DNA of 64,000 nucleotides, from positions 42,019 through 106,018 of the forward strand of contig DLRV01000011.1 in assembly GCA_002500565.1 (NCBI GenBank), given 5' to 3'. Below the pieces are notes generated by a model that ran no database searches, was not told the origin of the DNA, and saw nothing but the letters and a program-made list of their open reading frames with translations. Shown one piece after another: positions 18,296 to 44,950 of the stretch. Source of the stretch: Holosporaceae bacterium UBA7879 (lineage in GTDB: Bacteria; Pseudomonadota; Alphaproteobacteria; UBA7879). The position numbers and the translations under genes were made by a program. The first letter of the stretch is position 1. Every line of letters begins with the position of its first letter.

Positions 18296-18420
18296 ACTTC
18301 CAAGACCCGTCACTCCCCTTGCAGTCGCTCCGGGTGACGGGTGTTTGATTTACCCACCTTCACCTTACCAGTCATTCTGAGCGGATTTCATATCCGCGTG
18401 AGAATCTTTCCATATGATGA
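18296..18420. repeat. cluster of short palindromic MITE-like repeat units
   Basis: units ACCCGTCAC...GTGACGGGT and GTCATTCTGAGCGGATTTCATATCCGCGTGAGAATCT; same unit types recur at 20880, 22060, 24955, 39880, 42200, 44570. Confidence 0.7.
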
Positions 18421-18507
18421 CCTTTTGAAACTTCATCCACAATTTAATTTGAAAAATTTATACTTAATAACTAAATATATTAAAATATTTAAAAAAAGGT
18501 TAAGCAT

Positions 18508-20610
18508 ATGTCTGCACATTTAAAAAAGATATTTTTAATTTTGTTGCTGGTGAATACGTATTCTGTTTTGGCAATGGATCCTGCAGAAGATCAAGAAGAA
18601 CCCTCTTTAAGGCGCACCCCTCTTACCTCAGATCGCGCTTCGGAAGATGTGCCTGCCGCAGCGGCGACTGCTGCCGGTCCTGTTCATGAAGTGGGTCAAG
18701 TAAAAGATCCTCTTATTAATGGATGTCGAAAAAAATTTGAGGCCCTCATAGAAGAAGAACCACCAGAATTGAAAGACGAGCTGCGTAGAGCTTATGAGAA
18801 GGTTGGAGAAATGTTTGATGCTTATAAGCCAAAAAAGCCAGGTTGTCCTGTATTCGATGATCAAGTCACAATTAGTCCTGAACTGAAGATATCAGTTGAG
18901 AACCTTCATACCCTCAACAGCAGTTTTTACTTACACGGTTTCATGTCTAGAATTTTTCCTGTAGATGGTCACCGTATGGCTGTACTTCTTGCACTCCAGA
19001 CGTATGAAGAAAAAACTTTTGAACGGGCAAAAAAAAGAGCCAAACTCGAAAAAGAAACAATAGAAGCAAGGAAACCCAGTGACCAGCCAAATGCCCCCAA
19101 AAAAGAAGGACCATCTCCTGGAGCTCCTCCTTCTTTGTGGAGCCTCCTTAACCCTCATAAGCCAGGTAACGGCGGCAAAGGCTTTTTTCCTCCTGTTCCT
19201 GTATTTCCTCATTCTTTGTCGAGCTTCCTTAACCCTCATAAGCCAGGTAACAGCGTCACAGCCTTTTTTCCTGGTGTTAATGGACCTCCTCTTTCAATGG
19301 GCTGTGGGGGAAAACCCAGTGACCAGCCAAATGCCCCCACAAAACCGGGACAAAGAAGTATTGTTTCCCCAGCAGCCTCCGCTCAAGCATCTGCAGCTGC
19401 ATTGCAAGCCACCTCTCCCGCAGCAGCTGCAGCCCCTGACGAACAATCTTTAAAACAAGGTTTAAGCGTTGCAGCCCTTGCACAAACAGTGATTGCTGCA
19501 ATGTCTTCGGGTTCTAATCCTTGCTGTGCGCCATCAATGATATCGAATGCAGCACTGGTATTAAGCCAAGTTGTAAAAGCAAGCGAGGATGATTTCAGAT
19601 ATCACTTTCTTCAGGAAGTGCAGAAAAGCCTTGAGGCGAAAAGTGGCGCTTCCTTTAAGGATCCAGTTCCGCTTTCTTCTTGCGAAGAGCTAGCAGTGGT
19701 TTGCGGCAAACAAATACCCGAAGAGTTCTTATCACTTTTAACAGGCGATGGAAAACTTCAAGTCACACAAAATGTAAACACTTTAACCGGCGAGCCCCAA
19801 AAAATGTTAGAAAAGTTTGCGGAGAGAGAAGATCTAGCAGTAGCAAGTGCTTCGCTATTAACATTCAAGGAGAAATGGTCATCAGCAGTAAGTGCAGAAA
19901 TTTACAGTGGTTCTTTGCCGTGGAAAGATATAAACGGTAATGAAGTAGAACTTCCACCAGGACACTTTTGGAAATTTTCCCGTAAAGGAAAAGAAGAGGG
20001 CATATTCAGCTTTTTAAGAAACTACACCCTAGCAGAAATTTTACACAAATCTACTGAATCAAAAAGAGATATTGGCCCAGTTATTTTGCATGCACAACAA
20101 AATGAAACGGGTGAATGGATAAATGACTTCTCATCACCAGAGGTTTCTCTATTAGGTCTGTTTTCTCCCAATAATAAAAGCCTCGTGGTTTTTGCCAAAG
20201 CAAATGGTGACGAAAATGCACAGAAAGTAACACCTGAAAATGTGTTGAAGATTATGGCATCATGTCACATTTATGGACCCTCTTTCGATAATGCCAACGG
20301 GATTCTCCCGATATTGGAAAGCAATCAAGAAATTAATTTAAAAGATTTATTTAAATTGTATGATCCTAGAATCTTAGAATGGATTCAAACAATTAAAATG
20401 AAAATAAATCATAAAGGAGCAGAAGTTATTGCGCGACAAGTTTTTGGAGCTGTTTTAAGAGGAGGTGGAGGAAATGTGCCTCGTTTTGACCCCTTAACGA
20501 TATTTAAAATGATACAAGCTGGTGGACTATGTATGGTCTTTGATGCGAAAAATCTAGCTTCCCCCCTTGCTGTTACGAAAGTCACCAACCCCACAAAATA
20601 TAAGCCTTAG
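18508..20610 (+). CDS. secreted hypothetical protein with internal tandem peptide repeats (effector candidate)
   Basis: 700 aa; signal peptide (LILLLVNTYSVLA); repeated SDQPNAPxK and LNPHKPGN...FFP motifs (DNA repeats at ~19070/19310 and 19146/19228). Confidence 0.45.
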   Translation: MSAHLKKIFLILLLVNTYSVLAMDPAEDQEEPSLRRTPLTSDRASEDVPAAAATAAGPVHEVGQVKDPLINGCRKKFEALIEEEPPELKDELRRAYEKVGEMFDAYKPKKPGCPVFDDQVTISPELKISVENLHTLNSSFYLHGFMSRIFPVDGHRMAVLLALQTYEEKTFERAKKRAKLEKETIEARKPSDQPNAPKKEGPSPGAPPSLWSLLNPHKPGNGGKGFFPPVPVFPHSLSSFLNPHKPGNSVTAFFPGVNGPPLSMGCGGKPSDQPNAPTKPGQRSIVSPAASAQASAAALQATSPAAAAAPDEQSLKQGLSVAALAQTVIAAMSSGSNPCCAPSMISNAALVLSQVVKASEDDFRYHFLQEVQKSLEAKSGASFKDPVPLSSCEELAVVCGKQIPEEFLSLLTGDGKLQVTQNVNTLTGEPQKMLEKFAEREDLAVASASLLTFKEKWSSAVSAEIYSGSLPWKDINGNEVELPPGHFWKFSRKGKEEGIFSFLRNYTLAEILHKSTESKRDIGPVILHAQQNETGEWINDFSSPEVSLLGLFSPNNKSLVVFAKANGDENAQKVTPENVLKIMASCHIYGPSFDNANGILPILESNQEINLKDLFKLYDPRILEWIQTIKMKINHKGAEVIARQVFGAVLRGGGGNVPRFDPLTIFKMIQAGGLCMVFDAKNLASPLAVTKVTNPTKYKP

Positions 20611-20879
20611 GATATTGTGAATTAAAAAAGGGCTCAATTAGTTATTTATTTAAGAACTCTTTCTTGCTGTTTTGAGCCTTCCCAGAATGTATAGGTTAGA
20701 TAATTCATTGACAGAGTTTAGAATAGAAAGAGCTCTGGAAACAACGAGGCAACCATGAGAATGAACAGTAAAGATGAAACGCTCAAAAAGAAATGATATC
20801 CAAAAATATCCGTTTTTAATCAAAGACTATGAATCTGTTAAGGGTTAGTATCCATCCAACCCTTAATAGCGTAAGGGCC

Positions 20880-21010
20880 TTTTATGCCCTGCACTTGCCG
20901 GTCGATTCCCTCCTTTACCAGTCATTGCGAGGCGGAGCGTAGCTCCAAAACACGTCATCATGAGGAGTGGTGAAACCACGACGTGATGATCTCATCCATT
21001 TCCCCGTCAT
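20880..21010. repeat. palindromic MITE-like repeat units
   Basis: CCAGTCATTGCGAGGCGGAGCGTAGCTCC...GTCATCATGAGGAGTGGTGAAACCACGACGTGATGATCTC. Confidence 0.7.
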
Positions 21011-43442: not shown

Positions 43443-43504
43443 ATCAATAAAGGCCGCCGGCTTTGGTGGCTGGCGGTTATATTCAAAAATGAAGTGAGTT
43501 AAAC

Positions 43505-44536
43505 ATGACGAAAAGCGCTCAAACCACTCCCCAAACAACCTTTGGTATTTTCTGGGCCAGCCTGTTTTCACCTCTCACTCATTTTATAACGTTTTTGCGT
43601 TTCTGCTCTGTGCCTATTTTTTATCAGCTGGTTTTTGGTGTTGCCATGGGGTTCGTTGCACCATATGTGCCAGCCTTTCTATACTTCTTCATACTTATGC
43701 TTGGCCAAGCTTTCCTGTTCTTATTCTTTGATACATTATTTGATGTTTCTGTCAGCCGTTTGTGTGATGGCCAGGCAAAGGGCACAGGCATCTCAAAGCT
43801 TTCGTTTTATGGCTGTGGTTGGCGTACATTTTTTGTCAACGTTAAGCTGATTCTTATTTTTCTGCCTGCCTTCATATTGTTAGCTGCTTTTGTTTTGCAC
43901 AGCTTGGGATCTTTCCATCAGCCTGTATCGGCAGCTGTTCAACAATACTTTTATGATGCCTCAGTCATGCCGCCAACTTTGCGCGCCCTGGTTGAACGCA
44001 CACTTATTAATCTTGGCGTTGCCGTATTTTTTATTATGGCGATTGCGCTTTATTTTTACAGCCGTTTCAGCGTTGCCGAGCCTGCGGCAGCCCTTGGCGA
44101 GAACCCTCACCTAAGCACTGCATGGCACACAACCCATGCTAACAAAACCTTACTCTACAAAATTCATTGGCTATTATTTCCTCTTTACATCCTGGTTTCC
44201 TGGTCTGGAGAAATCACAAAACCCACACCTTTACCAACAACCAATAACGCCAAACAACCAATTCAAGTTGCCGCATCAGAGACAGTCGAAACGACAGCAA
44301 ACGGACAATCTAGTGCTTTTTCTATAGAATATAAAATGCCAAAAAACTATGATTTAAATGGCGCCTCAAAAACAACACCAGCACAAACCACTTCGGTCAA
44401 AAGCCTTTTTAGCCGCGGCGCGTTAATGAATTTATTATTGGGCGGCGCTTCACTATTGATTGGCTATCTATTTTCTTTCATTTCCGGCTTTGCTGTAACG
44501 CTTGGGTACCGGAAACTGTCACCACGGAAGAAATAA
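43505..44536 (+). CDS. polytopic inner-membrane protein (hypothetical, possible paralogue of preceding gene)
   Basis: 343 aa; similar N-terminal architecture (F-rich amphipathic start then TM helices) to 42582..43442. Confidence 0.4.
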   Translation: MTKSAQTTPQTTFGIFWASLFSPLTHFITFLRFCSVPIFYQLVFGVAMGFVAPYVPAFLYFFILMLGQAFLFLFFDTLFDVSVSRLCDGQAKGTGISKLSFYGCGWRTFFVNVKLILIFLPAFILLAAFVLHSLGSFHQPVSAAVQQYFYDASVMPPTLRALVERTLINLGVAVFFIMAIALYFYSRFSVAEPAAALGENPHLSTAWHTTHANKTLLYKIHWLLFPLYILVSWSGEITKPTPLPTTNNAKQPIQVAASETVETTANGQSSAFSIEYKMPKNYDLNGASKTTPAQTTSVKSLFSRGALMNLLLGGASLLIGYLFSFISGFAVTLGYRKLSPRKK

Positions 44537-44569
44537 GGTTAACAATCAATCATTCTCTGAAGAGTGTTT

Positions 44570-44950
44570 ACATCTCACCCGTCATTAGGCGGGTGTCTCA
44601 TGCCTTTACCAGTCATTGCGAAGCGGAGCGCAGCCCAAAACCCGTCATTCTGAGCGGATTTTTAATCCGCGTGAGAATCTGATTTCGCCCAATCGTCATC
44701 ATGAGGAGCTACCTTGTAGCGACGTGATGATCTCTTTCTATTTCACTTAGATCCTCACGCTCTCTTCCCTCGCTCAGGATGACCGGTAAAAGGGGAAGCG
44801 TCATCATGAGGAGGCGTTCACGCCGACGTGATGATCTCATCTGCCTTTAACAAGACCCTCGCGTCAAAATTGCATTTCTCCTCAGGGTGACGGGTAAATA
44901 GAAACCCATCATTCTGAGCGGATTTTTAAATCCGCGTGAGAATCTCCCTT
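44570..44950. repeat. large cluster of palindromic MITE-like repeat units (at least 8 units)
   Basis: all unit types present: CACCCGTCATTAGGCGGGTG, GTCATTGCGAAGCGGAGCG, GTCATTCTGAGCGGATTTTTAATCCGCGTGAGAATCT (twice), GTCATCATGAGGAG...CGACGTGATGATCTC (twice), CCTCAGGGTGACGGGTAAATAGAAA. Confidence 0.75.

Follow-up and report, generated by a model that had tools for sequence, protein, structure and literature searches.

What are the short palindromic repeats that lie between accessory genes in part of the genome of Holosporaceae bacterium UBA7879, and by what process have they gathered there? The question is raised by a 64-kb stretch of contig DLRV01000011.1 (hereafter the window, by whose coordinates the repeat units are named), in which the original prediction had pointed out at least eight clusters of such repeats and likened them to repetitive extragenic palindromic (REP) sequences, Rickettsia palindromic elements (RPEs) or miniature inverted-repeat transposable elements (MITEs). 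Units of 35–45 nt or their fragments are present in all eight clusters, that at about 24235–24300 holding degenerate relics recognised by eye. The repeats are members of a very widespread family, and the clusters are likely to be mosaic arrays of REP-type units of the CGTC superfamily, that is, selfish or neutral single-strand hairpins that multiply in dispensable DNA and mark breakpoints of gene content.

CGTC-tagged repeats form a large REP superfamily without a known mobilising enzyme, and the data presented here constrain the search for the mechanism. Four additions are made: a variant with an interrupted stem that crosses phyla and is carried by phages, selection for folding on the tagged strand only, turnover of arrays between close relatives, and directional duplication of half units. 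For this genome the repeats are an ordinary feature; their wider bearing comes from the breadth of a single conserved frame and the absence of a linked enzyme.

A single frame shared by all units

Read along the tagged strand, a unit opens with a (C)GTC tag, an A-T and a T-A pair and a triplet that covaries with its partner; GAG, an apical hairpin of variable sequence and CG-N-R come next, followed by the complement of the triplet, AT and a CTC tail. The stem has 5 bp and is followed by the purine-rich GAG/CG-N-R internal loop and an apical stem of 4–8 bp with loops of 3–5 nt, and the three bases of the tail are unpaired. By hand count, 13 of 22 units and half units have the tag CGTC and six have AGTC, with GGTC, AGCC and CATC found once each. 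The window holds 13 copies of the motif GTCATNNNGAG where 1.05 ± 1.1 are expected, and none of 100 shuffles contained as many. Demanding a complementary triplet before ATCT yields 14 complete units, 13 of them on the plus strand and all within 18372–44945, and the predicted frame of GTCAT-NNN-GAG with a complementary triplet is borne out. All units are located between the long open reading frames (ORFs) of the window, in non-coding DNA, as had been claimed.

A covariance model, R1, was built from an alignment (A1) of 80 units of other organisms that contains no window sequence. At E<1e-3 it recovers 14 window units (E 3.5e-7 to 3.6e-4), all intergenic and between 18.3 and 45 kb; five weaker matches comprise 42219, 42332 and three minus-strand modules of the GTCAC type, here called B, and at E<0.1 nothing in the window is matched outside 18368–44948. 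Since R1 was built without window units and nevertheless finds them, the window repeats belong to a widespread family. The copies counted by motif are also grouped by direct-repeat families D11–D15. Subfamilies can be told apart as TCT (18372, 22074, 44645 and 44909), CAT (20955, 22342, 44696 and 44801, with a decayed copy at 42335), TGC (22229, 42223, 42277 and 39890, with 5' halves at 20921 and 44612), TCC (24988, with a mismatched copy at 22124) and CCT (44749–44782, minus strand).

A second module, CCTCAGGGTGACGGGTAAATAGAAA / CACCCGTCA, had been listed beside the units; it is not a separate element. Its reverse complement is the frame of the CAT unit except that C:G replaces T:A as the second stem pair, a compensated change, and the "CCTCAGGGTGACGGGT" module is this unit read from the minus strand; the reverse complement of 22170–22214, for instance, reads CCCGTCAC-CCT-GAGGAG-AAATGAAATTTC-GACGTG-AGG-GTCTT. 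Every GTCAT-type unit opens its stem with A-T and T-A, and GTCAC-type units with A-T followed by C-G. The claim that units run in both orientations requires a similar revision: GTCAT-type units lie almost all on the plus strand, and it is the GTCAC-type modules that provide the minus strand. Orientations follow one another as + + - + - + at 22060–22400 and, after one half unit, again as + + - + - + at 44612–44948. The large clusters are arrays of two unit types in partly alternating orientation.

Shuffle counts, R1 matches and the covariation described below exclude a chance origin. An assembly artefact is contradicted by six independent assemblies of identical sequence, and chance, artefact and an identity as integron attC or other cassette-boundary sites together have a negligible probability. 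Imperfect hairpins with unpaired bases at gene boundaries, and the bracketing of gene 18508–20610 by clusters, do recall cassettes, but core sites of the RYYYAAC/GTTRRRY kind are lacking (the units end in GTCAT...ATCTC), as is an integrase, and up to 7 units stand in tandem without ORFs between them.

Folding of the tagged strand

The five basal pairs of A1 were forced to pair by the pattern with which its units were collected; the inner helix was not. There, all four pairs show changes on both sides, and 77.6% of cells are paired. Over the nine pairs together, 90% of cells pair, compared with 21–55% when the partner is slid, and 113 double-sided changes were observed versus 33 in shuffles. 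Compensatory differences are also visible in the window, where the apical stems of CAT units read TGGT/ACCA, CTGC/GCAG, CTAC/GTAG and GGCG/CGCC.

Of 434 distinct units, 409 have a CGTC strand that folds more stably than the opposite one, the mean difference being 2.7 kcal/mol, and GAA, GCA and GTA predominate among the apical loops. In single-stranded DNA, unusual stability is a property of GNA triloops with a closing C-G pair, as in d(GCGAAGC), and of tandem G.A pairs. The CGTC-tagged strand is the strand selected to fold. A hammerhead or kink-turn-like interpretation of GAG...CGAA was rejected: the core is mismatched by eye and the CGAA positions vary (CGTG, CGCG, CGCA).

Distribution among bacteria and phages

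Further copies of the units occur elsewhere in related marine genomes and well outside that group, all with one architecture; neither of the outcomes named as refuting the original prediction, uniqueness to the window or lack of a common architecture, is observed. The pattern GTCATTGCGAG-N8-38-GCAATCTC was scanned in IMG/VR (uncultured-phage contigs) and in a collection of one genome per species, and matched at least 120 DNA stretches in each. Among the matches listed, the genomes span at least 18 phylum-level groups, namely Chloroflexota, Planctomycetota, Bacillota, Bacteroidota, Ignavibacteria, Nitrospirota, Desulfobacterota, Myxococcota, Zixibacteria, Armatimonadota, Patescibacteria, Omnitrophota, Acidobacteriota, Latescibacterota, Gemmatimonadota, Atribacterota, Campylobacterota, and Alpha- and Gammaproteobacteria, including a metagenome-assembled genome (MAG) of the Rickettsiales. 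The outer frame is constant among these matches and the insert is each time a different self-complementary hairpin. A marine metagenome scan with the CAT unit gave 27 loci with 86 R1 matches, none of which overlaps the window region, and the GenBank phage collection gave four weak records, none annotated.

Copies in the same loci that the pattern had not forced carry GTC on the 5' side, CTC, CTT, CCC or CCA on the 3' side, and other triplets (TCC, CCT, TCT, CGC, CCC). GTC occupies its place in 102 of 280 unforced frames, noise included, against at most 8 for any other triplet. Tails in these other loci are CTC (38), CCC (16), CTT (16) and CCA (16); among the units listed, CCA tails accompany uninterrupted stems, and such uninterrupted forms, e.g. 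GTCATTCCCGCGAAGGCGGGAATCCA, also occur there. Dimers in the pan-bacterial loci are arranged with tags outside in 57 cases, head-to-tail in 13 and with tags inside in 11. Arrays in the window and in related marine contigs are mostly co-oriented or alternating.

Relation to known repeats

The CGTC-tagged REP superfamily, with families CGTC-1 to -4, was described by Di Nocera, De Gregorio and Rocco (BMC Genomics 2013, PMC3733652). In the passages of that paper on which we draw, the repeats are 20–40 bp long, with an unpaired CGTC (or TGTC/CCTC) tag, uninterrupted stems of 8–9 bp that nearly always begin with complementary AT, loops of 4–5 nt and a 3-nt tail of consensus CCA. The same passages place them in five phyla, mainly in Alphaproteobacteria, Rickettsia and Wolbachia included, and equate CGTC-1 of Neisseria with dRS3 and CGTC-1 and CGTC-4 of R. 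conorii with RPE-6 and RPE-4 (PMC3733652). There, most repeats form tags-outside dimers, head-to-tail pairs are negligible and clusters are rare except in Neisseria and Wolbachia; Di Nocera et al. found no Y1 transposase gene with CGTC units on its flanks, unlike GTAG REPs with their REP-associated tyrosine transposases (RAYTs), and units with bulges are said to have possibly been missed (PMC3733652). Our literature search found no follow-up on CGTC repeats beyond papers citing this survey, whose supplements are without consensus sequences, and a search by unit sequence and peptide strings (GTCATTGCGAG, LLRFARNDG and others) returned unrelated primers only.

The window units share with this superfamily the tag, the AT stem start, the presence of a short tail, multi-copy intergenic placement and the lack of a linked transposase, and at 35–45 nt they are slightly larger. 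They differ from families CGTC-1 to -4 by the 5-bp basal stem with its GAG/CG-N-R internal loop and variable apical hairpin (insert of 8 to more than 40 nt), by a CTC rather than CCA tail, and by arrays that are largely co-oriented rather than tags-outside dimers; furthermore, the interrupted-stem frame extends over at least 18 phylum-level groups and to phage contigs, compared with five phyla for families 1–4. The window repeats are thus an interrupted-stem, CTC-tailed, array-forming variant within the CGTC-tagged REP superfamily, set apart from families 1–4 by the description of those families and not by their consensus, so that an overlap with CGTC-3 or CGTC-4 is possible. The likeness to REPs and RPEs proposed in the original prediction is upheld by this anatomy and by the assignment of RPE-4, RPE-6 and dRS3 to the superfamily; the likeness to MITEs is not.

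Like IS200/IS605-derived MITEs and other palindrome-associated elements, the units are small, non-autonomous, structured and multi-copy. Unlike them, they lack terminal inverted repeats, target-site duplication and separate left and right ends; each unit folds as a whole into a single hairpin, and the flanks share no duplicated target. A MITE was rejected as a candidate on these grounds.

The Neisseria dRS3 and intergenic mosaic elements (NIMEs) are comparable as mosaic intergenic clusters with interleaved modules (in the window, 22060–22400 and 44570–44950). dRS3 is a 20-bp repeat with a perfect stem that bounds unrelated RS modules; in the window, by contrast, the modules between units are themselves units in opposite orientation. 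The outer frame of the TCC-type unit at 24988, ATTCC...GGAAT, resembles what we take to be the dRS3 consensus. RPE-4 and RPE-6 (CGTC-4 and CGTC-1) can be likened to the window units by family assignment rather than by sequence, the host being here too an alphaproteobacterium with an ATP/ADP translocase; many RPEs, however, lie in frame within protein-coding genes, and the window units are all intergenic. GTAG REPs, with the bacterial interspersed mosaic elements (BIMEs) and REP doublets forming hairpins (REPINs) that they compose, have in common with the window units a tag with an imperfect hairpin, two unit types alternating over short linkers and a proposed single-strand DNA mechanism. They differ in that the window tag is (C)GTC in all units and not GT[AG]G, that the frame is cross-phylum rather than lineage-specific, and that no unit-flanked RAYT is found in the window or in the other unit-bearing loci.

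Turnover of arrays and breakpoints of gene content

How do such arrays arise? The units would behave as selfish or neutral DNA that gathers in dispensable intergenic DNA, by two routes. Along the first, single units or multi-unit blocks may be dispersed through a trans-acting activity able to recognise the folded single strand; if the analogy with GTAG REPs and RAYTs holds, this could be an enzyme of the HUH/Y1 type, of which none is linked and none was found. Along the second, arrays may grow, shuffle and decay locally by slippage or recombination between the short conserved frames. Units probably serve, in addition, as breakpoints for the gain and loss of neighbouring accessory genes.

Two relatives, obtained through homologues of the portal protein, bear on these routes: L274 (93% protein identity) and L277 (76%). 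A four-gene block (portal, 168-aa protein, 156-aa protein, lysozyme) is kept in both. The spacer between the 168-aa and 156-aa genes measures 388 bp with 6–7 units in the window, 207 bp with three units in L274, and 103 bp without an R1 match in L277, so that differences at one orthologous site, which the original prediction had proposed to look for, are found between relatives. By alignment, the modules of this spacer run A-B-A in L274 versus TCT, TCC-type, B, TGC, B, CAT and a TCT 3' half in the window. The three-unit block 22116–22268 is missing at the L274 site, and an 83% identical copy is present at the unrelated locus L260, whose array shares with the window the module order TCC-type, B, TGC, CAT, TCT.

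The clusters are located at sites where gene content differs from that of the relatives. The 700-aa gene 18508–20610 and both clusters that flank it have no counterpart in L277, and in L274 their place is taken by a different gene with units of its own; the proposed association with accessory-gene junctions is supported by these differences. The same orphan gene carries an 81-bp tandem duplication (85% identical) at 19116–19277 on the plus strand. A tRNA gene at 15577–15666 (plus strand) borders the stretch of about 15.8–21 kb in which gene content differs among the window, L274 and L277.

A quite improbable alternative is that the units are primarily recombination targets, such as attachment or insertion sites of phage or insertion sequence (IS) recombinases. 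The neighbourhood lends itself to this idea: the phage-like portal and lysozyme block, the IS5-like fragment and the gene-content breakpoints all adjoin clusters, and a CGTC dimer on phage contig L123 lies 75 bp from an IS200 element. REPs are IS targets in Pseudomonas, Neisseria and Sinorhizobium according to a passage of the survey cited above (PMC3733652). In Neisseria, dRS3, which is CGTC-1, serves phage integration and IS110-type elements, a target function shown there and not for the window units. The window, for its part, contains no integrase and no IS110-type gene, the block from portal to lysozyme is constant in the relatives while the surrounding units vary, and the multiplication of units would be left unexplained. 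Use as a recombination target is compatible with selfish or neutral multiplication rather than an alternative to it.

Two regularities emerge from the fetched loci. A 5' half followed by a pyrimidine-rich linker and a full unit was counted 36 times versus 5 for the mirror arrangement (about 7-fold), the window contributing two cases of a 5' half with a full unit, at 20921 and 44612. Tandem arrays of 5' half and linker, with 3–5 copies at a period of 24–39 nt and one complete unit in last place, were found in L088, L113 and L124 (IMG/VR) and in L033, L132 and L188; in one phage group a 39-nt half unit is repeated in tandem 3–5 times before one complete unit. Secondly, at orthologous sites with flanks about 85–95% identical, the outer frame is kept and the apical hairpin is unrelated and of different length, as between L086 678 and L096 1555, between window 22073–22110 and L274 2862–2906, and in the B unit too. 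Recombination in the 11-nt frames of arrayed units, or slippage induced by the hairpins, could be the source of both.

Strand bias and a possible role in RNA

GC skew on the plus strand of the window is negative throughout, at about -0.13, and of the R1 matches at E<0.1, 14 of 15 lie on this negative-skew strand. Our own tally of related marine contigs with |skew| >0.1 places about 41 of 49 matches on the C-rich strand, and IMG/VR contigs have the same bias, by 105 to 17. As a general property, a replication-strand bias was discarded: it is seen in this lineage and in phage contigs and is absent in pan-bacterial loci. Hairpins are known to stimulate deletion, and preferential deletion of the stronger hairpin where it lies on the lagging-strand template would best account for the bias towards the C-rich strand in this lineage.

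The strand on which the units lie also bears on whether they act mainly as RNA, as hairpins in untranslated regions that stabilise, terminate or process the flanking transcripts. We regard this as unlikely. The units are intergenic hairpins with compensatory changes, as such a function would have them, and four of seven clusters adjoin at least one plus-strand gene, where the well-folding strand could be transcribed. On some phage contigs, moreover, units lie in sense orientation 7–22 nt upstream of start codons, and an RNA role is favoured for many REPs in the part of the survey by Di Nocera et al. that deals with function (PMC3733652). Most window genes, however, lie on the minus, G-rich strand, so that their transcripts carry the poorly folding complement, and the clusters at 22.1–22.4, 25.0 and 39.9 kb are flanked by minus-strand genes only.

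Termination, a function that had been suggested for the units, is not supported. They have no T tract, and the intrinsic terminators called in the window adjoin them: canonical ones lie beside units on the minus strand at 25088–25067 and 24213–24195, the units at 24960–25024 being downstream of the former, and two marginal calls overlap units (18326–18343 and 42237–42253). Arrays of up to 7 units with additional half units are hard to square with an RNA function, and no Rfam family matches: at gathering scores only a tRNA was found in the window, and at E<=10 the clusters 22040–22420 and 44540–44960 gave chance-level matches only (E>=0.13). A general RNA role in this genome is disfavoured because of the genes on the G-rich strand, the missing T tracts and the adjacent canonical terminators.

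The search for a mobilising enzyme

A cognate RAYT or IS200-like transposase had been proposed as something to look for. The window contains none, nor a Y1 or other transposase except for a 34-aa DDE fragment; integrase and IS110-type genes are likewise absent. Among the 2127 ORFs of unit-bearing loci no protein family is enriched, the large clusters of proteins being those of one phage group. A scan for the Y1-transposase motif in about 270 unit-bearing loci (about 2.2 Mb) gave two matches, neither flanked by units. One is the IS200-type element at 1–861 of L123 (IMG/VR), with tnpA at 145–594 and end hairpins CCACCCGC...GCGGGTGG unrelated to the units; the CGTC dimer beside it has its tags outside and is linked to it by adjacency only. 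The other is a truncated RAYT-like ORF in L210, and the unit closest to it lies 2.6 kb away. The lack of a linked enzyme agrees with that of a dedicated CGTC-repeat transposase in the passages of the published survey that treat the question (PMC3733652).

It is very improbable that a RAYT encoded elsewhere in the genome mobilises the units as classical REPINs or BIMEs. The anatomy is analogous, with a tag, a hairpin and alternating orientations in arrays, and in other phyla tags-outside dimers dominate over the two other arrangements (57 vs 13 and 11). The tag, however, is CGTC and not GT[AG]G, Di Nocera et al. found no Y1 gene that CGTC units flank (PMC3733652), and the unit-bearing loci hold nothing closer to a RAYT than the truncated ORF of L210, which is not flanked by units. 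Moreover, RAYT-linked REPs are reported to be lineage-specific, and the present frame is uniform across the phylum-level groups.

A bolder proposal, to which we give little credence, is that the interrupted-stem CGTC hairpin is acted on by a hitherto unrecognised mechanism of copying or mobilisation, one with a near-unlimited bacterial host range that is carried by phages as well. Such a mechanism might consist of an unlinked enzyme or might exploit a universal DNA-processing activity of the host. The excess of half-unit duplications in one direction (36 against 5), the swaps of apical hairpins within a kept frame and the absence of a linked transposase would be its footprints.

Several observations weigh against the multiplication of selfish or neutral hairpins as the origin of the arrays. 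It is from the distribution of the units that we infer their mobility, no mobilising enzyme having been found. The window region is 100% identical in all six of its public copies; the polymorphism between strains that had been envisaged is thus not seen within this population. No pair of filled and empty sites with exact boundaries or target was obtained, and the phage pair that comes nearest to one has a replaced spacer; in related phage contigs, homologous spacers differ by replacement, half-unit insertions or deletions and swapped apical hairpins, and no clean insertion is among the differences. The thermodynamics of single units are modest (DNA fold z -3.6 to +1.5) and TCC-type units barely fold; these z-scores are too modest to be used as a stand-alone argument. 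The strand bias is partly a detection effect, since GTCAC-type units on the opposite strand score poorly with R1, and the pan-bacterial genome loci have none (112 vs 124). An active CGTC strand of the IS608 kind should furthermore sit on the G-rich lagging-strand template, and it is found on the other strand. Finally, the phage-contig units just upstream of start codons leave room for an RNA role. Even so, the multiplication of hairpins in dispensable DNA remains the explanation that we consider likely.

Description of the units

The first cluster begins with a degenerate B unit on the minus strand (18303–18343, GTCAC-CCG-GAG...CGG-GTCT), recognised by eye through the 9-bp inverted repeat ACCCGTCAC/GTGACGGGT and below the reach of R1 at E<=10. 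It is followed on the plus strand by a complete TCT unit at 18368–18410 (R1 28.1 bits, E 2.6e-5; DNA fold z -2.9). The next cluster, also on the plus strand, is composed of the 5' half of a TGC unit without the CGTGGCAATCTC frame at 20921–20950 (family D13), which leads through a linker to a complete CAT unit at 20951–20995 (31.8 bits, E 2.7e-6), and of a 5' stub, GTCATCATTATGA, seen by eye at 21006–21018.

The array in the spacer between the 168-aa and 156-aa genes opens with a complete TCT unit at 22070–22112 (plus, 32.5 bits), the ortholog of L274 2862–2906 with a different apical hairpin. A TCC-type relative at 22120–22160 (plus, 23.9 bits, E 3.6e-4) has the mismatched triplet TGC/GGA and folds poorly. 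The B unit of CCT type at 22170–22214 (minus, 14.6 bits, E 0.11) adopts the family fold. A complete TGC unit at 22225–22269 (plus, 34.7 bits, E 4.6e-7), a second B unit at 22283–22327 (minus, 12.4 bits, E 0.42), which is the ortholog of L274 2813–2853, and a complete CAT unit at 22338–22382 (plus, 34.3 bits, E 5.8e-7) come next. The last member, at 22386–22399 (plus), is identified by sequence and alignment as the 3' half of a TCT unit (GACGCGAGAATCTC), at whose place in the array L260 has a complete unit.

Relics seen by eye include a minus-strand 5' stub (ACCCGTCATCCTTG) at 24243–24256, which adjoins the IS5-like fragment and has no R1 score, and a possible degenerate unit, GTCATTTTAAG...GAAATCC, at 24269–24305 (plus), missed by R1. 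Between these relics and others lies the DDE (IS5-like) transposase remnant of 34 codons at 24354–24458 (plus), RAKVEHVFAVLK, with a Pfam DDE_Tnp_1 match at E 0.009. By sequence, the 5' stub of a GTCAC-CCT unit at 24960–24974 (minus) abuts the open frame 24962->24492. The complete TCC unit at 24984–25024 (plus, 35.1 bits, E 3.5e-7), whose outer frame is the ATTCC...GGAAT mentioned above, holds the stop upstream of that frame.

Further along, all on the plus strand, are a complete TGC unit with a weak apical stem at 39886–39925 (31.9 bits, E 2.6e-6) and, by eye, the 3' half of a TCT unit (CATGAGAATCTC) at 39933–39944; then a TGC unit of family D12 with mutated tag and tail (GCCAT...ATTTC) at 42219–42263 (15.5 bits, E 0.065), a complete TGC unit at 42273–42317 (32.6 bits, E 1.7e-6) and a CAT unit with a decayed 3' frame at 42332–42372 (12.2 bits, E 0.48).

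In the last array, the 5' half of a TGC unit at 44612–44640 (plus, family D13) leads through a linker to a complete TCT unit at 44641–44683 (plus, 32.4 bits; DNA fold z -3.35). A complete CAT unit at 44692–44736 (plus, 34.2 bits) forms a tags-outside pair with the complete CCT unit at 44746–44786 (minus, 26.8 bits, E 5.9e-5), and another complete CAT unit occupies 44797–44840 (plus, 32.2 bits). The B unit at 44850–44894 (minus, 9.7 bits, E 2.3) belongs to D11, with 88% identity to 22154–22238. A complete TCT unit at 44905–44948 (plus, 25.9 bits, E 1e-4; fold z -3.6), has its tag mutated to ATCAT, and 11 nt separate its end from the stop of the gene 44959–46377 on the minus strand.

Host and genomic context

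The window region is identical in six independent public assemblies from Tara Oceans and other marine samples, GCA_002696935.1 among them. The nearest named relatives of the portal protein are Alphaproteobacteria, Paracaedibacteraceae and Holosporales MAGs. A TLC ATP/ADP translocase, a marker of obligate or facultative intracellular bacteria, is encoded at 29379–30914 on the minus strand (Pfam E 2.9e-156). The translocase and the names of the portal homologues suggest that the host is a marine symbiont-like alphaproteobacterium.

Units are absent from the housekeeping blocks holB-tmk-dacC, recJ, infB-nusA and pgk, and from the type VI secretion system (T6SS) genes tssF, tssG and vgrG. The neighbours of the clusters are ORFs without Pfam hits, the phage-like lysozyme and portal block, and the 34-aa IS5-like fragment.

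Truncation of a gene by one cluster had been proposed for 24492–24960. The minus-strand frame 24962->24492 is open for 156 codons, its first in-frame start being a TTG at 24743, and the upstream stop falls inside unit 24984–25024; judged from these features, 24492–24962 is plausibly a 5'-truncated gene. ORFs 22232–22540 and 42251–42520 (both plus), the latter without a Pfam hit, traverse repeat arrays and are likely to be annotation artefacts; the units account for spurious ORFs such as 22232–22540. Translation of units yields strings such as ...LLRNDG*, and strings of this kind are common among the 'hypothetical proteins' of databases. R1 can be used directly to mask such repeats when genes are called on MAGs.

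Phage-derived genes are dispersed among host genes at 21046–24141, 46847–49481 and 58720–63649, and include a lysozyme, a portal, a head-completion-like protein and a prohead protease-capsid fusion. This scattering is reminiscent of a gene-transfer agent or a decayed prophage. The window also carries a T6SS block, vgrG-tssG-tssF. An ORF of 1067 aa rich in Ala, Gln and Glu at 25113–28316 (minus), without a Pfam hit, contains three copies of a 219-nt repeat at 26052–27014 (74–93% identical to the reference copy, with starts 339 and 405 nt apart); its product may be a coiled-coil surface or effector protein.

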